A stretch of 53,582 nucleotides of DNA, from the IMG/VR virus record IMGVR_UViG_2923318301_000003. One strand, given 5' to 3'. The notes under the pieces were generated by a model. It searched no databases and was not told the DNA's origin. It was given only the letters and a program-made list of their open reading frames with translations. The position numbers and the translations under genes are program-made. Position 1 is the first letter of the stretch. Each line of letters begins with the position of its first letter. Of the stretch, positions 1 through 52,214 are shown piece by piece. Origin of the DNA: a virus (Duplodnaviria > Heunggongvirae > Uroviricota > Caudoviricetes).

Positions 1-1209
1 CTACTTTGTAGCGTTCACCAGCAAAGAAATACATGAATTATGATTAGCGTTTATATAGTCCGCATACCACTGCATCATCTCCCTACGTCCTTCCAAATAC
101 AACGCATGGTTATACGTCCCACGAATCGCATTTTTATCAACGTGAGCCAGCTGGGTTTCAATCCACGCTGTATTGAAACCTTCCTCATGCAAAATCGTAC
201 TCATCGTGTGACGGAAACCATGCCCCGTTACCCTCCCCGTATATCCAATCCGCTTAAAAACCTGATTAATACTCGCTTCACTCATCGTCTTGCGGGGATC
301 ATTACGTCCCGGGAACACCAGTGGATATTGCCCTGACATCACTTTGAGTTGCTGTACGATTTCCAGCGCTTGGGTAGAGAGGGGGACAAGGTGAGGCCGT
401 TTCATCTTCATACGCTCGGCAGGTATCTCCCACACCGCTTTTTCAAGATCAAACTCACTCCAGAAAGCACCTCGGAGTTCGCCAGTGCGAACTCCCGTGA
501 GGATCAGCAGACGTGCCGCAAGAACAACTAACGGGCTTCCTGTGTAGCCTGCGAGAGCTTTAAAAAAGTCTGGTAACTCCTCAACAGTAAGGAAGGGATA
601 ATGCTTCGATTCATGCCCTGACATCGCGCTGGTAAGATCCGCTGCAGGATTGTATTCCGCACGACCGGTTACGATGGCGTAACGAAAGACTTCGCTGCAA
701 CGCTGGCGAACCTTCTTGGCCTTCTCTGTCGCGCCACGGCTTTCAATTCGACGCAGCACATTAAGCAGAACCAGCGGTTTGATTTCATTCACCGGTTGTT
801 GGCCAATATAGGGAAAAATATCTTTATTAAAGGCTTCGATAATGTCCGAGGCATAACCTTCTGACCATCGGCTCACCTTCGTTCCATGCCATTCAAGTGC
901 CACAGCCTGAAACGTATTATTTAGCTGCACATCTCGAACCAGCTTTTCTTCTTTCTTGGCAAGCGATGGATCGATACCTTCGGCAAGCTTTTTCTTGGCG
1001 TCGTCACGCAGTGCCCTCGCTTGTGCAAGGGACACTGCCGGATAGACACCAAAGGCCATACGCTTCTCTTTTCCATTGAAGCGATATTTCATCCGCCAGT
1101 ATCTGGAACCAGAGGGAACAACCTCAAGATACAAACCAGCACCATCTGCCAGCTTATAGGCTTTCTCTCTGGGTTTAGCTGCGTCTACCTGTCGCGCATT
1201 AAGTTTCAT
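1..1209 (-). CDS. P4-type tyrosine integrase of a second thrW-associated island that continues left of the window
   Basis: 415-aa ORF (likely start at MKLNARQ). C-terminal HGFRHT...LAH...Y motifs typical of tyrosine recombinases, with a P4/CP4-like N-terminus. Start faces the tRNA-Thr 3' repeat at 1371..1418; stop codon is at 1..3. Confidence 0.85.
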   Translation of the reverse strand: MKLNARQVDAAKPREKAYKLADGAGLYLEVVPSGSRYWRMKYRFNGKEKRMAFGVYPAVSLAQARALRDDAKKKLAEGIDPSLAKKEEKLVRDVQLNNTFQAVALEWHGTKVSRWSEGYASDIIEAFNKDIFPYIGQQPVNEIKPLVLLNVLRRIESRGATEKAKKVRQRCSEVFRYAIVTGRAEYNPAADLTSAMSGHESKHYPFLTVEELPDFFKALAGYTGSPLVVLAARLLILTGVRTGELRGAFWSEFDLEKAVWEIPAERMKMKRPHLVPLSTQALEIVQQLKVMSGQYPLVFPGRNDPRKTMSEASINQVFKRIGYTGRVTGHGFRHTMSTILHEEGFNTAWIETQLAHVDKNAIRGTYNHALYLEGRREMMQWYADYINANHNSCISLLVNATK

Positions 1210-1370
1210 TGGGGGCATCTCCCTAGACCGAACACAAAATGCCCCCACTTATGCCCCCAACTGCGACTTGATTTCGGTTGAGTCTAGTTGATAACAGGAG
1301 ATAAGATACGGGCCAGAAACCGCAGTATACGAGCTTTTAGTTGATTTCGGTAGACTTGGGAAGAGTTTGA

Positions 1371-1418
1371 AATGGTGCCGATAATAGGAGTCGAACCTAC
1401 GACCTTCGCATTACGAAT
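1371..1418. repeat. 48-bp direct repeat identical to the 3' end of tRNA-Thr (distal att core copy)
   Basis: aatggtgccgataataggagtcgaacctacgaccttcgcattacgaat is identical to 52137..52184; the two copies diverge immediately afterwards. Confidence 0.85.
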
Positions 1419-2165
1419 TATAAGAATCCGCTTCTAATTCAAAGTATTACCCCATCAACACTGTGCTCACACGTCCCACCACATCAAAACATGTAAAGCC
1501 TTGCAAGCCATTGTGAGGCCTTATGTGTCTCAGTTTTGTCCCACCTTGTATTATGACTTGCATAGCCAATGAAGATAAACGTGACGACAAACAGCGCAGC
1601 AGTCTTCTTTTCTTTCACACTTTCCCCAATCAGCATACATACTTTCTACCATAACTGTAGTGAATGTCTGTTATGAGCGAGCAAAAGAGATTCAATTACC
1701 GGGGAATTACTCCGACATAAGCTCTCCCAGAAACACCGGAACAGCGATTCGCATATTCTCTTCTATACTTTCAGTCTGACCGGCTGGAGATTTCATAGCA
1801 AGAAAATGGATGCGCCAAGACCTATGCGGGAAAGAGGCTGAGGAAATAATTGCCGATAGCACTGTGCCCGACGAAAAGTTAATCTGGCACGCAATGACGC
1901 GCGTCCTTGGGGCATCAGGAATCAGAGAGCCAACTTAACAACCCATTACATATTATTTAACCGGACTGTTACATGTACAAAGTTCAATGATTAGTGATTC
2001 TGTGACGCCACATACAACCTAAGCCCCTGATATAAAACCAGTCTATGCAACACCTAAAAATCATATATGATAGGGTGATAAGTCAACGCGCAGTATAAAA
2101 ATTAAGCTAAAAAATGCTTTCAGCATAGTGAATCTATTTCACACTACATAATTAAGGATGAAAAA

Positions 2166-3011
2166 ATGACTGCACCAGTAATTAGTTTTATCAATATGAA
2201 AGGTGGGGTTGGTAAAACAACTTTATGCGTTGGGATTGCTGAGTTTTTAGCCAACCATATGGGGCGCAAGGTTCTAGTTATCGATATTGATCCTCAATTT
2301 AATGCCACTCAGTCCTTAATGGGGCATTATGATCGAGTAGAAGAATATATGACTGCCCTTCGCCCTAATAATCAAACCATTCGAAAGATTTTTGAGCTTC
2401 CAAATTCATTAATGGAAGATGAAAAGAAAGTGACACCAGAACAGGTCATTACTAAAGTTTCAGACAATCTTGATATTATCTTAGGTGATATAAACATTAT
2501 CTTTGATACTAACCAAGAGGGTATTAGAATAAAAATGTTGCGTAAATTCATCACCGAAAATGACTTAAAAGAAAGTTACGACTATATCTTTATCGATAGC
2601 CCCCCAACAATCTCATTATTTACAGATACCGCACTCCTTGCTTCTGATTATTATCTTACTCCGGTTAAAATTGATCACTACTCGGTGCTTGGAGCAAGCA
2701 GTTTAAATAGCGTTATAAGAAATATGCGCACACATCATGAGAAAGAAATCAAGCAAGTCGGTTACATTTATACAAACACTGATGCTGAAATGACCAATAA
2801 AACAAGGGAAATTAAAGAACAATTCGAAAACCATACTCAATTTACAAATTTTTATTTCTTTGAAAATCAATTAACCTACGTGCGTGATTTAATGGTAGGT
2901 TATCAAGGAAATATTCCTTCTTGTTATTCAAAGTCACGCCAAGATATAGAAAAGATCTGTAACGAATTTATTAACAGAGTGGCTCACTTGGAAGGTAACA
3001 CAAATGAATAA
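2166..3011 (+). CDS. ParA/MinD-family deviant Walker-A ATPase, first gene of a three-gene operon
   Basis: N-terminal MKGGVGKTT (KGGxGKT deviant Walker A); 281 aa; AT-rich; 8-nt overlap with the next gene. Confidence 0.8.
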   Translation: MTAPVISFINMKGGVGKTTLCVGIAEFLANHMGRKVLVIDIDPQFNATQSLMGHYDRVEEYMTALRPNNQTIRKIFELPNSLMEDEKKVTPEQVITKVSDNLDIILGDINIIFDTNQEGIRIKMLRKFITENDLKESYDYIFIDSPPTISLFTDTALLASDYYLTPVKIDHYSVLGASSLNSVIRNMRTHHEKEIKQVGYIYTNTDAEMTNKTREIKEQFENHTQFTNFYFFENQLTYVRDLMVGYQGNIPSCYSKSRQDIEKICNEFINRVAHLEGNTNE

Positions 3012-3402
3012 ACAATTAATTAAAGCGCTCAATAAAGCTAATAATATGCCCATGACCAAAGAAAACTTCTTAGGCTTGGTAATTATGTTGATTCTTTCAA
3101 AAGAGGTTTTTAGATCAAATTTTGATGTTAGTAAATTTATTAACAAAACCTTCAAAATATCTTTTTTGAATTATGCTGTACGGTCAAGAACTTTGATGTG
3201 CGCTAAAATTTGCAGACATATTAATGAATTAAGTGAGAATGACATAAAGATGGCTTATACGCATTTCTTAAACAACATTAACACATTAGACATTATTTTT
3301 AATGATGCAAATAAAACAAGCCAAAAATCCACATCTAAAAGCAAGCATGCTATAAGGAATTTAAATATTTGGATTAATGCAAATAAAAAGGAAGAAGAAT
3401 AA
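3004..3402 (+). CDS. Hypothetical protein, operon partner of the ParA-like ATPase
   Basis: 132-aa ORF overlapping the upstream stop; its stop overlaps the next start (ATGA at 3402). No recognisable motif. Confidence 0.6.
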   Translation: MNKQLIKALNKANNMPMTKENFLGLVIMLILSKEVFRSNFDVSKFINKTFKISFLNYAVRSRTLMCAKICRHINELSENDIKMAYTHFLNNINTLDIIFNDANKTSQKSTSKSKHAIRNLNIWINANKKEEE

Positions 3403-4067
3403 TGCTCACGCAGGATCCCTTCAACATTGGAAGAGATGTAAATTATTTTAGAGCGGAGGTGCAAAAGCACCTCAGAACCACTGATGAAATAAACAAATCA
3501 GTATCAATATTTAGGCAAATAAGTCTTTGTAATACAATTTTAAGTCACAATCCTAATCTAAATCACTCTTCTTATATAAAAGGTTTTATATATGATACCT
3601 TAAACTCCTTAATTGCCATTATAAAAAAAAGAGAACGGTATCTCCAACTGAACTTCCGCTCAATGGTGGAGCATGTGGCCAGAATAAGCCTCAATAAGAA
3701 CTACAATGGTGGGGATTTTGACCAAACTGTACGTCGTAGAGACTTTGACTTCTTAAAAGCCCAACAAGTCGATGAAGGCTGGTCTTATTTACATAATGTC
3801 TATATCAACGCCTGTTATTATGTTCACTCCTCCCCCCAAGCGAACCTAAATGTTACATCAACATTTATATCACTTATGGAGGGAGATTGTAATTCAACAC
3901 AGCATAAAATGGTGAAAAAACTTCATGAGGTAGTATCGGCGCTGATGAGAATCATTATAAAGTATTATCATCAGCATATCTCAAACATTTTCTTTAGAAA
4001 CAAAAAGGATTTAGAGAAAATAATGGGAAAAAGCCTTTATTCATATTATACCAGCTTAGACAATTAA
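3402..4067 (+). CDS. Hypothetical protein, third gene of the ParA-like operon
   Basis: 221-aa ORF translationally coupled to the upstream gene; contains R-x4/5-H spacings (RAEVQKH, RSMVEH), which are not diagnostic. Confidence 0.6.
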   Translation: MLTQDPFNIGRDVNYFRAEVQKHLRTTDEINKSVSIFRQISLCNTILSHNPNLNHSSYIKGFIYDTLNSLIAIIKKRERYLQLNFRSMVEHVARISLNKNYNGGDFDQTVRRRDFDFLKAQQVDEGWSYLHNVYINACYYVHSSPQANLNVTSTFISLMEGDCNSTQHKMVKKLHEVVSALMRIIIKYYHQHISNIFFRNKKDLEKIMGKSLYSYYTSLDN

Positions 4068-4862
4068 TTCTCTCATATTCATTGCGTAGAGCATAAATAT
4101 CTATCTAACCACCTAAAATGCCAGAAAATCTAGTTGTATACCGGTGCGAAAATATCTCGCGTTTCATCTGCCACTGCTGCTGAATGCCCTGCCCAGCGAA
4201 ACAGAGTGTTTCCTTCCCGTCTTTTGCATTGAGGTGCTCCAGCACGCTCATTAACTTTTCGCTCCCAGGACCCAGCGCGTTATCGTCGAATAGGTTAGGG
4301 CATGCTCTGACTGAAGAAGTCCCCCAGCATTACCCCGGCTTTCTGATATCGGTGTCCGTCTTTCCATATTGCATCCAGACTCCCCGTTGCTACTGCAATG
4401 ATATCCCGACTGTCCTGTGTCGGGATGAGCAGCTTCACCGACGCGCTGTTACAGTAGTACGACTCGTTCAACGCAAAGGGTATCGTGTAAAACCGATGAT
4501 GACACTGCCGGCAATCAGCACTGACGTCAGCAAACGTGAGAAAGAACAGATAAGCCGAACGATTTAGGAAATGTTTGAAGAGACTGATATGTGGATGGTT
4601 TCAGTTTAAACGCCTTGAACCGTCATATTACCTAAGTACAATCCGCTGTGACTGGCAATCATTCAATACTTGCACTATCAAAAGTGCATCAGCCAACCGC
4701 AGCACGTCTTGCATACGACCTGTCTGCGGTTTCAATCACCTCTCACCACCAGTCCCATCAATAATAATTAAACAGCGCCTAAACAAAATAAATAACAACA
4801 AGTCAACAACCTCGACAGGATGCCGATGGGATGTAAGCGACTCATCAGAACCGTATTGATAT

Positions 4863-6434
4863 TTACTGAGAGCTCAGATCAACTTTCCAGGGCAACAGAT
4901 CGCGTACCCGGTTTGCCGGCCAGTCCTGGATATGTTCAATGACGTAACGCAGCCACTTTTCTGGCTCCACATTGTTCAGACGGCATGTGCCGATCAGCGA
5001 GTACAACACCGCCGCATGTTCACCACCGCTGTCGGAACCCGCGAACATCCAGTTTTTCCGGCCTACGGCCACTCCCCGTAAGGCGTTCTCTGCGATGTTG
5101 TTGTCGATTTCCACCCAGCCATTACTGCAGTACACGTTCAGTGCATCCCACTGTTTCAGCAGGTATGCGAACGCTTTTGCCGTATCTGAGTGACGCGACA
5201 GTGTTTTCATCTGTTGCTGTATCCAGTCATACAGTGACTGCATCAGTGGCGCGGCTCTGGCTTTTCTTGCCGCCAGACGCTGTTCTGCTGAACAGCCCCG
5301 GACCTCTGCCTCGATGGCATACAGTTCACCGATACGCTGCAGGGCTTCCGTGGTGATGTAGGTGGGCGCTCTTGCATGCACATCGTGGATTTTTCTCCGG
5401 GCATGAGCCATACACGCGGCTTCCGTTATTCTGCCGGATTCGTATAACGCCCGGTAACCACCGTAAGCATCGGCCTGAAGCACACCGCTGTAACCGGCCA
5501 GGTAATTTTGTGGATGGATACCTTTCCGGTCCGGACTGTACGCGAACCAGACCGCCGGGGGCATCTGTGAACCGGCGTTACGGTCATCACGGACGTAGAC
5601 CCACAGCCGGGCTGTCCGGGTTTTACCGCTGCCCGGCTCCTGGACCGGGACGGGGATATCATCAGCATGGACTTTACCGGGCATCAGCACATACTGGCGC
5701 AGGACGTCATACAGCGGCTCCAGCAGTTCAGCAACAGCACCTGTCCAGCGCCCCAGTGTGGCACGGCTCAGCTCCACTCCCTGACGACGGTATATTTCTG
5801 ACTGGCGGTATAACGGCAGATGGTCTGCATATTTCCCGGTGACAACATGGGCCAGAAGCCCCGCTCCGGCATAACTGCGTGCAATGGGTTTTGAAGGTAC
5901 TGGTGCCTGCACGATATGGTCGCACCGGCAACAGGCCTGTTTCGGACGTTGTGTTTCGATAACCTTAAAGGCGCTGCTGATAAGCTCCAGTTGCTCTGAC
6001 ACATCACATCCCAGAGAACTGAGTTCACCACCACAGGCAGGACAGCATTCCTCTTCCGGCCGGATAACCCGGGTTTCACGGGGAAGTGAGGCCGGTAACG
6101 GTTTACGGGCTGAAGACTGGCGCAGGGCGGATGGCAGTACCGGGTCATATTGCTCACCCAGCGTTTCCGCCATTTCTTCCTGAAGTGCGCTGATTCGCTC
6201 CTGTGCTTCCTGTATCTGCCGTTCGGTTTTTGCACGAAGTTTTTCTGAGCTTTTACCGAACTGCATACGTTGCAGTTTCGCAACCAGCGCCTTCAGCCGG
6301 TTGATTTCGGAAGCATAAGCCGCCACCCGCTGTGAGAGCAGGCGGTTGTATTCAGCCATCTGGCGGATGGTGTCCTGTTGCGTCTGCAACAGTGCCCGCA
6401 GGCGGGCGTTCTCATGAGCAAGTGAGGTGTCCAT
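4863..6434 (-). CDS. IS66-family transposase TnpC
   Basis: 523-aa ORF with N-terminal coiled-coil/leucine-zipper, a Cys-rich zinc-finger-like segment (CPACGG...CCRCD) and a DDE-type core; typical IS66 TnpC layout. Confidence 0.85.
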
Positions 6435-6453
6435 ATCCTCACTTTACAACGGG

Positions 6454-6801
6454 TTATATGCGGATTCCAGCGCGTTCCGTTCGTTTCGGGTGCTTCCAGT
6501 TGATACCTTCAAGAAGCATGGATAACTGAGCCGGAGTAAGGTGCACCTTGCCGTCACGGGTGACTGGCCAGACGAAGCGGCCCCGCTCCAGGCGTTTGGT
6601 GAAGAGGCACAGTCCGTCACTGTCAGCCCACAACACTTTTATCTGGTCACCCCGGCGTCCGCGGAAGATGAACAGGTGTCCGGAGAACGGGTCATCCTTC
6701 AGGACGTTCTGAACTTTTGATGCCAGGCCGTTAAAGCCATTTCGCATATCGGTGATACCTGCAACCAGCCAGATACGCGAACCTGCAGGGAGAGATATCA
6801 T
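6454..6801 (-). CDS. IS66-family TnpB (Orf2) accessory protein
   Basis: 115-aa ORF between orfA and tnpC with the conserved IS66 Orf2 character (WLVAGITDMRNGFNGLA...). Confidence 0.8.
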   Translation of the reverse strand: MISLPAGSRIWLVAGITDMRNGFNGLASKVQNVLKDDPFSGHLFIFRGRRGDQIKVLWADSDGLCLFTKRLERGRFVWPVTRDGKVHLTPAQLSMLLEGINWKHPKRTERAGIRI

Positions 6802-7478
6802 CAGTGGCTGCTCCCTTTTATTTCGCGGATAAGTGTCTGTAATAACGCCGGCGTCAGTTTACCTTTAAGCCTGAGAGTTCCGGCCGGCAGAACCAGCTCA
6901 CAACACAGACTGTCGGACGGTGTATTTATCTGCTCTGGTTCCTGTGCGGGGGCCGGGATTTTATTATCCGGCTCCGGCGTTAACGTCACGGGAAGCAGTG
7001 CCGGCATATTTTTTCCGGAAGGCAGCAGGCCACCTTTCCGGTATTGATGGCGCCAGTTGAAGAGCAGGTTATCGTTGATTCCGTTTTCCCGGGCGATCTG
7101 CGCCACACAGGCTCCGGGCTGCAGTGACTGCTCCACTAAGGCGATTTTAAACTCATAAGGGAAGTTGGGCCGCCGGGGACGTTTTTTTACCACGGGGGCT
7201 TCGGATATAACGGTGCTTTCAGGACGTACGACTGGTACCGTGGAAAATTGTCCGTAAAGGCAGGCATCAAGTTCCTGCTCCGACATGCCTGCGGGCAAAG
7301 GCCACGAAAGGCCAGCTCTCCGAAAGCGCACGAACATACTACAAACTGTTGATTTTGGTACACCCAGGCGACGCCCGGCCACAACCCGGGGTAAATGTTC
7401 TTCAAAGTGAAGACGTAAAGCTTCAGTGATCCAGGTCCGGTGTTTCATACGATAGTGTCCATTAAAAATGATGGACAT
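6801..7478 (-). CDS. IS66-family OrfA (Orf1)
   Basis: 225-aa ORF whose stop overlaps the tnpB start. HTH-like N-terminus. True start may be the internal Met (MKHRTW). Confidence 0.7.
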   Translation of the reverse strand: MSIIFNGHYRMKHRTWITEALRLHFEEHLPRVVAGRRLGVPKSTVCSMFVRFRRAGLSWPLPAGMSEQELDACLYGQFSTVPVVRPESTVISEAPVVKKRPRRPNFPYEFKIALVEQSLQPGACVAQIARENGINDNLLFNWRHQYRKGGLLPSGKNMPALLPVTLTPEPDNKIPAPAQEPEQINTPSDSLCCELVLPAGTLRLKGKLTPALLQTLIREIKGSSH

Positions 7479-7644: not shown

Positions 7645-9594
7645 ATGATTGTTCTAAATCAGATTAACTCCTCACTTTTGTACAATGTCGCTTACAGGTA
7701 TACCATGAAATCCGAGACGCTAACTGTCCAACAACTTTTTCAAGACCGCCGACAATACTGTGTTCCATTCTATCAACGTGCCTATGTATGGACTCAGCGA
7801 AACCAATGGTCAGCTCTACTGGAGGATATCCTAGAGAAAGCACAATCCCGGCTCTCGGGTACAAAACCAACTCCCCATTTCCTTGGTGCAGTGGTACTGG
7901 AACCTCAACCAAAAAAAGGATTATTCGGTGTAGATTCCATACATATTATTGATGGTCAGCAACGATTGACCACTCTTCAATATGTTCTGGCATCCATCCG
8001 ATTAGCATTACGTGCGACAGATCTTTCCAACTTAGAGCCTCTCATTTCGTCTTGCCTGAAAAACTCAAACGAAGACACAATGCGAAATAAAGAAGTAGAG
8101 CGCTTCAAACTGTGGCCAACTTTTCGGGATCAAACTCATTTTATTCAAAGTTTTAATGTTGAAAATATTGACGATATCCGGAATGTATTCTCTGATAGTT
8201 TCACGCAGCATGGTACGTTGCGTAAGCATTTTAATCACCCGCCATCACTAGAAGCATTATGTTTTTTTACTGAAGCCTTTATAAAGTGGATTAAAATAGA
8301 AAATCACTCACCACGAGAAAATGCTGTAGCATTAATTGAGGCTGTCTTGACGGATCTGAAACTAGTAAGCATATTTCTCGAGGCTGAAGATGACGCTCAA
8401 ATAATTTTTGAAACATTAAATGGCAGAGGTGCGGAACTTCATGCCACAGATCTTATTCGCAATTATATTTTTATGTGCGCTGAACATGAAAATATTAATG
8501 CTGTTGAATTATATGAGAATGAGTGGAAGATCTTTGAAGATACGTACTGGTCAGAAAGACAACGTCGTGGTCGTATTAATAAACCACGCATGGAGTGGCT
8601 AGTGCATGCAACATTGCAATCAGAAAGGCAACGTGAAATCGATCTGTCTCGTCTTTACAATGAGTATCGTGATTATGTAAGTAAGGACTTGCCTTCACAA
8701 CGAGCAGATCTGCAAGTAAAGCGCCTCAAACAATATGCATCACAATATAAAGAATTGGTTGGTGGTTTTGGCACAACCCCCATCTCACACTTTGGACATC
8801 GCATCGCAGCCTATGATGTGACGACACTTTATCCGCTTGCTTTGTTCATTTCGATAGCTAACATCGCCGATGATGAGAAAGCAGCCATGTATAATGATCT
8901 TGTCTCCTACGTAGTACGAAGAGCCGTATGTGGCCTGACGCCAAAGAATTACAACAATGTATTTATGAATGTATTGCGGCACTTGTCTAAAACAGAAATT
9001 TCCAGTGTTGAGTTACGTAATATCCTCAATAGCTTAAATGGCGAAGCCTCACGTTGGCCTGGGGACTCAGAATTTCTCAACGCTTGCATCAATGCTCCAC
9101 TTTATCCTGGCAGGCTCGACGCACCGAAAATGCGCTCAATGTTAACGGAACTTGAAAGAGAACTTTGTCGCCAAGTGAAGACAGAGAAGCCTGATGTTCC
9201 AAATCTTTCTAACCTCGATATCGATCATCTTATGCCTCAAAGTTGGTATTCCTGTTGGCCTCTCGAAAATGGTCATATGGTGACAAATTCAGATGCTACG
9301 GTATTGAACCAAATTGTTCTGTCTGGAACCGATCTTACCCCAGAACAGCTACTGGTAAGGAAACGGCAACAAGCGATAGCTACGTTGGGAAATCTAACTT
9401 TGCTTAACCTTAGCGTAAACCGTTCTGTTCAGAATGCTGTATTTCTGAAAAAACGTGATGCTCTCATCGTCCACACCAATCTACGACTGAACATTCCACT
9501 TATAGTTAAGGATAAATGGGATGAGGATGAAATCCTGGAGCGGGGTAAAAAGTTGGGGGAAATTGCATTGAAAGTATGGCCAAAACACGATTAA
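7645..9594 (+). CDS. Fused DUF262/DUF1524 protein, GmrSD-family type IV (modification-dependent) restriction endonuclease-like
   Basis: N-terminal ParB-like/DUF262 hallmark (IIDGQQRLTTLQ) and C-terminal His-Me finger/DUF1524-like motif (DIDHLMPQSW); 649 aa. Alternative start at 7705. Confidence 0.75.
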   Translation: MIVLNQINSSLLYNVAYRYTMKSETLTVQQLFQDRRQYCVPFYQRAYVWTQRNQWSALLEDILEKAQSRLSGTKPTPHFLGAVVLEPQPKKGLFGVDSIHIIDGQQRLTTLQYVLASIRLALRATDLSNLEPLISSCLKNSNEDTMRNKEVERFKLWPTFRDQTHFIQSFNVENIDDIRNVFSDSFTQHGTLRKHFNHPPSLEALCFFTEAFIKWIKIENHSPRENAVALIEAVLTDLKLVSIFLEAEDDAQIIFETLNGRGAELHATDLIRNYIFMCAEHENINAVELYENEWKIFEDTYWSERQRRGRINKPRMEWLVHATLQSERQREIDLSRLYNEYRDYVSKDLPSQRADLQVKRLKQYASQYKELVGGFGTTPISHFGHRIAAYDVTTLYPLALFISIANIADDEKAAMYNDLVSYVVRRAVCGLTPKNYNNVFMNVLRHLSKTEISSVELRNILNSLNGEASRWPGDSEFLNACINAPLYPGRLDAPKMRSMLTELERELCRQVKTEKPDVPNLSNLDIDHLMPQSWYSCWPLENGHMVTNSDATVLNQIVLSGTDLTPEQLLVRKRQQAIATLGNLTLLNLSVNRSVQNAVFLKKRDALIVHTNLRLNIPLIVKDKWDEDEILERGKKLGEIALKVWPKHD

Positions 9595-9989: not shown

Positions 9990-10192
9990 CGCAAGTATCG
10001 ATCGATGGAGGCTTGGATGTTAAATTTCATGACTTTGATCACTTGGTGCATCACGAAACTATCGAAGTGCAACTCGCTCATGCCAACGGCGGATCTGTGC
10101 GTGGGATTTACAACCATGCTCAGTATCTAGATAAGCGCAGAGAAATGATGCAGTGGTGGGCTGATTACATCGATGGTCGTGCAGGAGTGTAA
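9990..10192 (+). pseudogene. Remnant of the 3' end of a P4-type integrase gene
   Basis: Translation ...ETIEVQLAHANGGSVRGIYNHAQYLDKRREMMQWWADYIDGRAGV aligns with the C-terminus of the integrase at 1..1209 (...ETQLAHVDKNAIRGTYNHALYLEGRREMMQWYADYI...). No N-terminal or catalytic domains upstream. Confidence 0.55.
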
Positions 10193-39008: not shown

Positions 39009-39935
39009 ATGAAAGTTAGAAGCATAGGATTTACAATAAATAACAATAACAAAAATATTAATACCGTTGACGTAATGAATGCTTTTATCAACGCATCAAA
39101 CAGAGAACACAGTCGCACAGACTATACTCGTAAAATTCTCATTTCGGATGTGAATGATTTCTATTATGGATTAGTTGTCACATTCAGAAACCAAAAAAAG
39201 AACTGTAAGTCGCAATTTGTTGATGGTAAATTCCAGCTTAAAATTGAAGATCTTCAAGGAAGTGACAAACTTGCTAATTTCAACTTTTTCTTAATTAAAA
39301 AATCTAATCTTTCTGGTCTCTATATGTATCACCACGGGTCATGCAGTCTGAACACTCTCTTTTCTCATTTAGAAACAATAAGTAATGAATTTATCAGAAA
39401 TCAAAATAAAGAAGAAATAAAAAAACTTGGTGATAAACCAAAACAAAAAGAAGTAACTGCAATAAATAAAAAATACAAAGAAAGACTGACTTTCAGCCTT
39501 ATGACAAATAAAAACAACATTCAGAGTGTTTTATGTCAATTCAAAGAGATTAAAAGCACAAGCTTTAAATTTAATTATATAGATTTTAAAGGTGGACCAA
39601 TGACTGCGCTTGAACAATTTGTTAACACTACCACAATAGATATGAATTTTAATTCTAGCGACAGAACAAAAGTGCAACAACTATCTCAGAATCTTTCAAA
39701 TATTTATAATTCTATGAGTGGAGTTGCTAAAGCACAGGTTATTGCAGTAAACCATGCAGGAATAGAAAAAACCATTGATTTTATGAACTGCCCTGTTTTT
39801 TTTGAAACATACGATTTCGATATAATTGCCGATAAAGTCAATGGATTGACAAACGATAATTATACAACAAACCCTGTTTTTGATATGATAAAAGAAGAAA
39901 TGCTGAACGGGACGAATAAAAATGCCTTTATATGA
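39009..39935 (+). CDS. Hypothetical soluble protein, first gene of the AT-rich two-gene moron operon
   Basis: 308-aa ORF, strongly AT-rich, opposite strand to the flanking phage genes; 14-nt overlap with the next gene; no recognisable catalytic motif. Confidence 0.75.
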   Translation: MKVRSIGFTINNNNKNINTVDVMNAFINASNREHSRTDYTRKILISDVNDFYYGLVVTFRNQKKNCKSQFVDGKFQLKIEDLQGSDKLANFNFFLIKKSNLSGLYMYHHGSCSLNTLFSHLETISNEFIRNQNKEEIKKLGDKPKQKEVTAINKKYKERLTFSLMTNKNNIQSVLCQFKEIKSTSFKFNYIDFKGGPMTALEQFVNTTTIDMNFNSSDRTKVQQLSQNLSNIYNSMSGVAKAQVIAVNHAGIEKTIDFMNCPVFFETYDFDIIADKVNGLTNDNYTTNPVFDMIKEEMLNGTNKNAFI

Positions 39936-40470
39936 ATGGCTAATAAATAAAAGATTGAGGTATCAGTACCTTACACTGCTTGCATCCTCGATCCTGGCAT
40001 TGCTTGCACTTTACCTATTGTACAGAAACACACCTAAAGTAAGTGTTAACTTTTTTGATTTTTATCATAAAAACTTACGAGGCTATCTCTTCTCCGGTTT
40101 TATTTCCGTGGGCTCATTTTTATTGAGCCTGCATACCTTTGTCATAATAAATTTACGCGATAAGGTTTTTGCAACTCAGGAATATAAGGAAATTTATAGC
40201 ATTGCCACTGGTATACCTATTGACAAAATCAATGATAGTGTACTTTATAAACCTTTAGACAATTTATCCTCATTTATTAATACATCAATATTATGTTCTA
40301 TCACAACAGCAATTGCACAATTCACTATTGGACTTTCAACTAATTTATATGCATGCTTATTTTGCGTATGGCTTGCAATACTAACGGTATTTCTTTTATT
40401 ACATTGCCTCATCATAATCAGACAAAATATTAAAATTTTATTAAAGCAACAGAGAAAAAAAGGGGGGTAA
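39922..40470 (+). CDS. Small integral membrane protein (four predicted TM helices), second gene of the moron operon
   Basis: 182-aa ORF with four hydrophobic stretches of ~19-25 aa (LTLLASSILALLALYLLY; LFSGFISVGSFLLSLHTFVIINL; SILCSITTAIAQFTIGL; LYACLFCVWLAILTVFLLLHCLIII) and a basic C-terminus. Confidence 0.75.
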   Translation: MPLYEWLINKRLRYQYLTLLASSILALLALYLLYRNTPKVSVNFFDFYHKNLRGYLFSGFISVGSFLLSLHTFVIINLRDKVFATQEYKEIYSIATGIPIDKINDSVLYKPLDNLSSFINTSILCSITTAIAQFTIGLSTNLYACLFCVWLAILTVFLLLHCLIIIRQNIKILLKQQRKKGG

Positions 40471-50734: not shown

Positions 50735-51084
50735 TGGAGCCATACAGCCTCACACTCGATGAGGCCTGTCATTTTCTCAAGATATCCAGACCGACTGCCA
50801 TTAACTGGATACGCACAGGGCGTCTTCAGGCAACACGCAAAGATCCCACTAAGAATAAATCTCCTTACCTCACAACACGACAAGCCTGCATTGCGGCTCT
50901 TCAGTCTCCGCTGCATACTGTCCAGGTGAGCGCGGGTGATGGCATAACAGAGGAAAGAAAATGTCACTCTTCCGCAGAGGTGAAATATGGTACGCCAGTT
51001 TCACATTGCCGAACGGTAAAAGATTTAAACAGTCTCTTGGAACAAAGGACAAAAGGCAGGCGACAGAACTCCATGACAAGCTAA
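50734..51084 (+). CDS. Excisionase-like HTH protein (3' boundary uncertain; overlaps the integrase start)
   Basis: The N-terminus [30 protein letters not shown] is a typical excisionase/AlpA-type HTH; the open frame runs ~120 nt into the integrase gene. Confidence 0.55.
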
Positions 51085-52124
51085 AGGCTGAAGCATGGCG
51101 GGTCAGCAAACTTGGTGAAATACCTGATATAACGTTCGAGGAAGCGTGTGTCAGGTGGCTTGAAGAGAAAGCACATAAAAAATCACTGGACGATGACAAA
51201 AGCCGGATCGGATTCTGGCTTCAACATTTCGCAGGAATGCAACTAAGAGACATTACTGAATCAAAAATTTATTCAGCAATGCAGAAAATGACGAACCGGC
51301 GTCATGAGGAAAACTGGAAACTCAGGGCAGAAGCATGCAGAAAAAAAGGGAAACCTGTTCCAGAATACACGCCAAAACCAGCGTCCGTTGCAACGAAGGC
51401 TACGCATCTTTCATTTATAAAGGCCCTACTAAGAGCCGCAGAGCGTGAATGGAAAATGCTGGATAAGGCACCAATTATTAAAGTGCCCCAACCAAAGAAT
51501 AAACGGATCCGCTGGCTGGAGCCCCATGAAGCACAAAGGCTGATTGATGAATGTCCGGAGCCATTAAAGTCTGTTGTTGAATTTGCACTGGCAACAGGCC
51601 TAAGACGCTCGAACATCATCAACCTTGAATGGCAACAAATAGATATGCAGCGCCGGGTGGCATGGATAAACCCGGAAGAGAGTAAATCAAACCGCGCAAT
51701 TGGCGTTGCGCTGAATGATACTGCATGTCGCGTATTGAAAAAACAAATCGGGAATCATCACCGTTGGGTATTTGTGTACAAGGAAAGCTGTACCAAACCA
51801 GACGGAACGAAAGCGCCAACAGTCAGGAAGATGCGGTATGACGCAAACACAGCCTGGAAAGCAGCGCTGAGACGGGCTGGTATTGATGATTTCAGATTTC
51901 ACGACTTGAGACACACCTGGGCAAGTTGGCTGGTTCAAGCCGGAGTCCCGTTGTCAGTGTTACAGGAAATGGGAGGCTGGGAGTCTATCGAAATGGTTCG
52001 TCGATATGCTCACCTTGCACCTAATCACCTTACCGAACACGCACGGCAAATAGACTCGATCCTGAACCCATCGGTCCCAAATTTGTCCCAGTCAAAAAAT
52101 AAGGAAGGTACTAATGATGTGTAA
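50961..52124 (+). CDS. Prophage tyrosine integrase
   Basis: 387-aa ORF; C-terminal [39 protein letters not shown] catalytic region; ends 13 nt from the att core and tRNA. Confidence 0.9.
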
Positions 52125-52136
52125 CTTATTGATTTT

Positions 52137-52184
52137 AATGGTGCCGATAATAGGAGTCGAACCTACGACCTTCGCATTACGAAT
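52137..52184. repeat. att core within the intact tRNA-Thr (proximal copy of the 48-bp repeat)
   Basis: Identical to 1371..1418. Confidence 0.85.
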
Positions 52185-52214
52185 GCGCTGCTCTACCAAC
52201 TGAGCTATATCGGC
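52139..52214 (-). tRNA. thrW: tRNA-Thr (anticodon CGU)
   Basis: 76-nt cloverleaf on the - strand: GCCGATATAGCTCAGTTGGTAGAGCAGCGCATTCGTAATGCGAAGGTCGTAGGTTCGACTCCTATTATCGGCACCA; adjacent to proA as in E. coli. Confidence 0.9.

Follow-up and report, generated by a model that had tools for sequence, protein, structure and literature searches.

A probable RemAIN-family defence operon in the cargo arm beside the att site of a lambdoid thrW prophage of Escherichia coli

RemAIN is a prophage-borne system of three genes. Its name presumably joins RemA, an ATPase, RemI, an immunity protein, and RemN, a nuclease; its primary description is reportedly that of Sargen & Helaine 2024. In S. Typhimurium 14028 the Gifsy-1 genes STM14_3218 (840 bp, ParA-like), STM14_3219 and STM14_3220 (663 bp) are required for the RtcR-activating signal in the SOS response (Kurasz et al. 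2023, PMC9879122). The signal is RNA with a 2',3'-cyclic phosphate end. The genes are located in the Gifsy-1 immunity region beside the repressor and are expressed like it; their deletion raises Gifsy titres 2–4 fold, and the deletion phenotype is not a plasmid-segregation effect (PMC9879122). STM14_3218–3220 are named remAIN, and RemN is presented as a HEPN anticodon nuclease, by Sargen et al. 2026 (PMC13043305). According to a further paper, Salmonella RemAIN blocks the lytic cycles of foreign phages as well as those of prophages resident in the same cell (PMC12724215). The locus described here occupies positions 2166–4067 of a viral DNA of 53,582 nucleotides (nt), IMG/VR record IMGVR_UViG_2923318301_000003, which as a whole is called the window. 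It is very probably an intact E. coli prophage defence system of the RemAIN family (remA, remI, remN), carried in the cargo arm next to the attachment (att) site of a lambdoid thrW prophage. By sequence the operon is a divergent relative within the known RemAIN family, with a predicted role in defence, and not a new kind of system.

Operon structure and relatedness to Salmonella remAIN

Full-length BLASTP matches to one Salmonella-type locus (L026) were obtained with all three proteins. Identity is 65% for the RemA-like protein (1e-141), 33% for the RemI-like protein (3e-22) and 50% for the RemN-like protein (8e-89). L026 and the like locus L029 were identified, on features and not at accession level, as apparent Gifsy-1(14028)-type remAIN, STM14_3218–3220, because gene sizes, immunity-region context, Salmonella serovar names and HepS residues agree. 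The gene sizes, 840 bp and 663 bp, are those published for STM14_3218 and STM14_3220. The operon of L026/L029 stands 58 bp 3' of a cI-like repressor gene, with cII-like and replication-protein-sized open reading frames (ORFs) upstream; RecE/RecT are encoded downstream of the operon in the sibling loci L031/L034. Protein clusters of the L026-type lineage carry the names S. enterica Typhimurium, Newport and Anatum. A 210-amino-acid (aa) protein encoded at 4533–5165 (−) of L026, 3.6 kb upstream, has 9/9 published HepS residues (G19, Y20, F66, K78, L83, R100, H105, I107 and S202). Salmonella-type loci thus hold a second HEPN anticodon-nuclease defence gene, HepS, in the same prophage as remAIN. 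No HepS counterpart was detectable among the ORFs scanned in the window prophage.

The operon consists of three co-oriented, tightly coupled genes on the plus strand, in the RemAIN order of ATPase, small protein and nuclease of about 220 aa. By the ORF list, the remA-like gene extends over 2166–3011 (281 aa), the remI-like gene over 3004–3402 (132 aa) and the remN-like gene over 3402–4067 (221 aa), as the initial annotation had placed them. The 8-nt overlap annotated for the remA–remI junction was confirmed (sequence ATGAATAA). The ATGA overlap annotated for the remI–remN junction was not; that junction is a 1-nt TAATG overlap (sequence ...GAATAATGCTC), in which the stop codon TAA and the start codon ATG both use the A at 3402. 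The block is AT-rich, as had been noted, with a G + C content of 0.33 against 0.51 in the remaining window. Promoter and terminator scans remained at chance level, and an Rfam scan of 1200–4900 gave no match. In RefSeq the genes are labelled 'ParA family protein' and, twice, hypothetical protein.

The RemA-like protein (2166–3011) is a ParA/Soj-type deviant Walker A ATPase, N-terminal helix-turn-helix (HTH) absent. The motif MKGGVGKTT is located at residues 11–19, with the signature lysine K12 and the P-loop lysine K17, and is accompanied by Walker A' (VLVIDIDPQ) and Walker B (YIFIDSPP). Pfam matches are AAA_31 (7.9e-38) and CbiA (7e-17). Motifs and family matches agree with the ParA/MinD-type assignment first made from KGGVGKTT. 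The closest solved relatives are Soj proteins (best 6iub, 1.5e-18). All NCBIfam partition equivalogs score far under their cut-offs (e.g. ParA_partition, 77 vs 180 bits), and PADLOC gave P-loop-level matches only.

The RemI-like protein (3004–3402) is small and all-alpha. A conserved SRT...A...R core is followed by a variable linker and by a basic C-terminal helix that bears an invariant Trp. Neither this protein nor the RemN-like protein has a family in Pfam, NCBIfam or PADLOC (PADLOC-DB v2, 2023). Both match PHROG families without an assigned function, 6264 (3.8e-25) and 7540 (5.9e-77), respectively.

The RemN-like protein (3402–4067) is all-alpha and is regarded as a putative anticodon nuclease of apparently HEPN-like fold. 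HEPN domains are up-down bundles of four helices that carry an insert between helices 2 and 3, and in their Rx4-6H motif the R is followed by a polar residue. Residues of note are R86, S87, E90, H91, R94, Y134, C138 and H142. The string R86-S-M-V-E-H91, of Rx4H spacing, is present here and across the enterobacterial clade. An exhaustive profile search for the RemN family gave 102 representatives (clusters at 50% identity), nearly all 215–235 aa in length and matched over the full length; residues were counted over 87 of them. R86, E90, Y134 and H142 are invariant. S87, D65, R94 and C138 are kept in at least 90%, and R79 in 77/87. Position 91 is N in 67 representatives and H in only 10, so that the earlier description of the R-x4-H spacing as suggestive of HEPN, not diagnostic, is upheld. 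No Pfam HEPN family is matched by any of the 87 members, no significant match to the PDB was found with Foldseek for the RemN-like protein, and PDB sequence profile searches with queries A1 and A4 gave no meaningful match. The family and structure check proposed for the downstream proteins thus had a divided outcome: negative in Pfam, NCBIfam, PADLOC and Foldseek against the PDB, with a HEPN-like fold appearing likely for the third protein.

H142 stands at the end of a long helix. The catalytic histidine of HEPN domains is found at that helix end (PMC3710099). This position, together with the predominance of N at position 91 and the invariance of R86, E90, Y134 and H142, means that a composite catalytic centre could apply. 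RemN-type nucleases may accordingly forgo the textbook Rx4-6H motif and use a centre composed of R86/E90 and Y134/H142, with H91 specific to one clade; combined with a trigger and tRNA targets particular to the lineage, and with SOS- or prophage-dependent Rtc induction in about 1% of E. coli, this proposal is tentative and, taken as a whole, rather doubtful. It raises the testable question of which histidine is catalytic in RemN.

Distribution, synteny and selection

The order of ATPase, small protein and 220–235-aa protein is constant in every examined locus that is neither truncated at a contig end nor split by an insertion sequence (IS). It is found in 28/28 complete IMG/VR loci. It is also kept in distant low-GC metagenome contigs, where protein 3 identity is 20–25%, and in Enterococcus- and Romboutsia-type loci. 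The search for this three-gene synteny in other genomes, as proposed by the initial annotation, thus revealed a set conserved from Enterobacterales to Firmicutes. A G + C content of 0.29–0.34 is retained by the operon in every host, including enterobacteria with a genomic value of about 0.5. Low operon G + C in all hosts and the occurrence of the most divergent members on low-GC contigs suggest a Firmicute-like origin and recent spread.

Among complete E. coli genomes (n = 5,426) the window lineage is present in 52 at an identity of at least 99%. A second lineage, with 38% protein 3 identity, is present in 16/5,426; about 1.3% of complete E. coli genomes carry the operon. All three frames are intact in 48 of the 52 genomes with the window lineage. 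All three genes are under purifying selection and are conserved as a set: dN/dS (ratio of nonsynonymous to synonymous substitution rates), computed against Enterobacter and Klebsiella-type copies at dS 0.16–0.49, is 0.03–0.17 overall, with 0.03–0.07 for the remA-like, 0.16–0.17 for the remI-like and 0.09–0.10 for the remN-like gene.

Disruptions by IS elements are of several kinds. In E. coli (L046, L047, L048) the remA gene is split by IS903B in strain SCEC020023, and remN is split by IS3 and IS1A in p10A/p10B and NRZ95651. In Dickeya fangzhongdai (L016) remA is split by IS1. Such independent interruptions of remA and remN suggest cost or dispensability. A preference of the elements for AT-rich targets could account for them, as could selection against the operon on grounds of its cost.

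Every carrier is an integrating element with its own integrase. The cargo position varies: the att end in the window prophage and in the Enterobacter locus L014; the interval from int to pin in e14-like prophages, which in K-12 e14 holds lit and mcrA; a rexAB-like site downstream of the cI-like repressor in Salmonella-type loci; and a P4-type integrase island in Dickeya. Such places are usual for prophage cargo and speak for a role in defence. No match to the RemN-like protein was found by tblastn in 50,697 phage records. A plasmid collection searched with the same protein yielded one match, a circular e14-like phage genome, and a scan of genome contigs yielded one locus only.

Prophage setting and neighbouring genes

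The attR site, at 1373–1418, is a 46-nt exact direct repeat of the thrW 3' end. Only two copies of the repeat were found by pattern search of the window (chance expectation 0), in accordance with the att-site adjacency noted earlier. The right end of the window carries proA, the thrW gene for tRNA-Thr(CGU) on the attL side (52139–52214, −; ARAGORN) and the phage integrase gene, which ends beside thrW (50961–52124, +; Pfam Phage_integrase, 3.2e-48). Lambdoid tail, head, lysis and immunity genes and the integrase gene are located between the thrW repeat copies. Because the repeats enclose these lambdoid genes, the operon is placed within a thrW prophage, some 750 bp from its attR end. It stands between the attR repeat and the tail-fibre genes, as accessory cargo of an integrating element.

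Left of attR, a separate island carries a complete P4-type integrase gene (Arm-DNA-bind_3; 1–1248, −). Identity with strain 1283 begins only at about 1372, and the element leftward differs. A C-terminal integrase fragment of 45 aa, similar to the P4-type integrase, is located at about 10060–10190 (+), with the GmrSD gene on one side and the tail-fibre genes on the other. The P4-type integrase and the fragment point to tandem, rearranged integrations at thrW.

The operon is flanked by remnants of two genes. On the 5' side of remA, an SRAP (YedK-like) remnant is located at 1798–1911 (+; tblastn to L014 SRAP residues 172–209, 71% identity); it is annotated as a pseudogene in strain SCEC020023. 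Convergent with remN, a umuC remnant (DUF4113 end) is located at 4114–4513 (−; tblastn to L014 UmuC residues 285–419, 69–75% identity); it is called a frameshifted partial gene by RefSeq. These neighbours are decayed in the window while remA, remI and remN are intact. In the Enterobacter locus L014 the whole block is intact and comprises SRAP, the three genes, umuDC, a resolvase gene and tail-fibre genes.

An IS66-family element with ORFs of 523, 115 and 225 aa is inserted at 4863–7478 (−), between the umuC remnant and the GmrSD-type gene. Strain 1283 has an arm that is identical except for the lack of this element, which indicates a recent insertion beside the umuC remnant. The GmrSD-type gene (DUF262/DUF1524), for type IV methyl-directed restriction, extends over 7645–9594 (+) and is matched by PADLOC mREase_IV over its full length (E = 0). 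It lies 3.6 kb from the operon in the same cargo arm, and nearer in strains without IS66. Homologous loci, inspected for defence neighbours as the initial annotation had proposed, provided further cases. In the Enterococcus-type contigs L049/L051 (228–5220) the order is a C5 DNA methylase gene with a restriction-endonuclease-like gene, the three-gene set on the same strand and a GNAT acetyltransferase gene; in L041 the operon is near a NACHT/STAND gene. A second AT-rich, overlapping ORF pair (308 and 182 aa; local G + C 0.31–0.39) is present in the window prophage at 39009–40470 (+). No match to either ORF was found in Pfam or PADLOC. The pair could be another cargo or defence module.

Interpretation and comparison with known systems

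A defence operon of the RemAIN family is favoured over a partition locus, in agreement with the accessory, possibly anti-phage role first suggested: three full-length RemAIN homologues are present, and parS repeats and a ParB-like fold are not. Non-canonical DNA partition or positioning, in which the phage genome, once excised or while it replicates, would be segregated or anchored by the ATPase and ORF2 and/or ORF3 would be a new centromere-binding adaptor, was rejected and is highly improbable. The ATPase does have all ParA/Soj motifs and Soj proteins as its best solved relatives, it resembles type Ib ParA in size and in having no N-terminal HTH, and the small ORF2 protein shares basic termini with some ParA partners; but direct, inverted or tandem repeat arrays are absent in and around the operon (only chance-level two-copy short repeats in 1419–4400, no tandem repeats in 1200–4900), and ORF2 and ORF3 are without HTH, ribbon-helix-helix (RHH) or ParB family match or fold. 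Searches by family, fold and repeats at the operon thus agree with the earlier statement that ParB-like HTH and centromere features are lacking. The invariant R/E/Y/C/H residues of ORF3 are enzyme-like and accompany an apparently HEPN-like fold, all carriers integrate by their own integrases, and phage defence and RNA cleavage are the roles of the Salmonella homologue, whose deletion phenotype is other than plasmid segregation. An equally slight probability is given to the view that the operon is a leftover of AT-rich DNA from horizontal transfer that is silent or in decay and now functionless in this strain. A G + C content of 0.33 in a background of 0.51, pseudogene fragments of SRAP and umuC on both sides, IS66 at a distance of 800 bp and independent IS insertions into remA or remN, both in E. 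coli and in Dickeya, would suit such a remnant, and H-NS silencing is expected on such AT-rich DNA. An inert remnant was nevertheless rejected on the intact frames, here and in 48/52 E. coli genomes, and on dN/dS of 0.03–0.17 at dS 0.16–0.49; all catalytic-type residues are kept as well.

An addiction or competition module, that is, a three-part toxin-antitoxin set that would stabilise its element or suppress rival prophages and not serve broad host defence, is unlikely, although less so than the two preceding alternatives. In its favour, Anantharaman et al. 2013 (PMC3710099) predicted a toxin-antitoxin function for ParA/Soj-HEPN dyads, and every copy of the operon resides on a mobile element. 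In addition, the Salmonella version was described in print as a 'prophage competition element' that lowers the titres of Gifsy phages, including its own carrier (PMC9879122, PMC13043305). This explanation overlaps that of a RemAIN-type defence system and does not exclude it; the Salmonella system also protects against external phages. Strain SCEC020023 is viable with IS903B-split remA and intact remI and remN. Its viability is a poor fit to a constitutively active toxin held in check by RemA alone, but could be due to polarity of the insertion.

Several points weigh against assignment to an intact RemAIN-type defence system. Identity to the characterised Salmonella system is only 33–65%, and function of the E. 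coli copy is assigned by homology. L026 was equated with Gifsy-1(14028) by shared features and not by accession number. In its own prophage the operon is located at the att end and not, as in Gifsy-1, in the immunity region, which bears on expression in the lysogen; it is flanked by pseudogenes (SRAP, umuC), and remA or remN is interrupted by an IS in 4/52 E. coli genomes. The RemAIN mechanism is taken from two later papers that summarise Sargen & Helaine 2024 (PMC13043305, PMC12724215). Plasmid-borne Salmonella remAIN protects one strain background and not LT2 (PMC12724215).

For the RemAIN-family reading of the window locus, the mechanism would be that of the Salmonella system by homology, the sole system where it was shown. 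The Salmonella system is likewise the only one for which protection against phages, neutralisation of RemN by RemI and dependence on the RemA ATPase are known. The three translationally coupled genes would be expressed in the lysogen, where a complex with RemI and RemA would keep RemN inactive. Lytic development of an incoming phage or co-resident prophage would lift the restraint on RemN. RemN would then cut tRNA anticodon loops, leaving 2',3'-cyclic phosphate ends; translation would stop, and the lytic cycle and lysis of the phage would be blocked. Activity of the E. coli copy, its trigger and the tRNAs that it would cut are inferred by analogy. In the KEN/HEPN RNases Ire1 and RNase L, dimer assembly is controlled by nucleotide-bound kinase domains. 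Speculatively, ATP-driven dimerisation of RemA might gate RemN, e.g. via HEPN dimer assembly.

Under the RemAIN-family assignment three genes gain a name and a likely function, RemAIN-type defence. The family would be broad, from Enterobacterales to Firmicutes, with a fixed gene order and several distinct prophage cargo spots. For E. coli the prediction is that tRNA cleavage and Rtc activation are specific to certain strains and depend on the prophage.

Likeness to lambda rexAB and to e14 lit and mcrA is positional only. The genomic positions are of the same kind (3' of cI in the Salmonella lineage; int-to-pin in the 38%-identity E. coli lineage); there is no relationship between the proteins or in mechanism. 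Type Ib ParABS systems (ParF/ParG of TP228, delta/omega of pSM19035) likewise have a small ATPase with a deviant Walker A motif and no N-terminal HTH, and its gene precedes that of a small partner. The window set differs from them in the absence of an RHH/HTH partner and of centromere repeats, in a third gene for a predicted nuclease and in carriers that integrate, as opposed to plasmid replication. HepS (STM14_3211) and the PrrC/RloC-type enzymes are likewise HEPN nucleases encoded on prophages or islands; on phage infection they cleave tRNAs in the anticodon loop and so stop translation. HepS acts without partners and its trigger is the tail-tip protein J, whereas nucleases of the RemN type depend on an ATPase and an immunity protein and have other tRNA targets (PMC13043305). 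No sequence similarity was detectable between HepS or PrrC/RloC-type nucleases and the RemN-like protein. ParA/Soj and HEPN (MAE_18760) dyads resemble the window set in a ParA/Soj-type ATPase gene coupled to a HEPN or HEPN-like gene and in a conflict-system context; they differ in having two genes and a canonical Rx4-6H HEPN of another family, whereas the window set has a small middle protein (PMC3710099). Closest is Gifsy-1 RemAIN. Both sets consist of three genes that overlap on one strand, agree in order and encode proteins of matching size (281/132/221 aa in the window, 279/130/220 aa in Gifsy-1). Also shared are a lambdoid prophage as carrier, ParA-type Walker motifs and the RemN residues R-S-x-x-E-H...Y-x3-C-x3-H. 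The window lineage differs from it in a RemN identity of about 50%, in its E. coli host and in its att-proximal position between SRAP and umuDC remnants.

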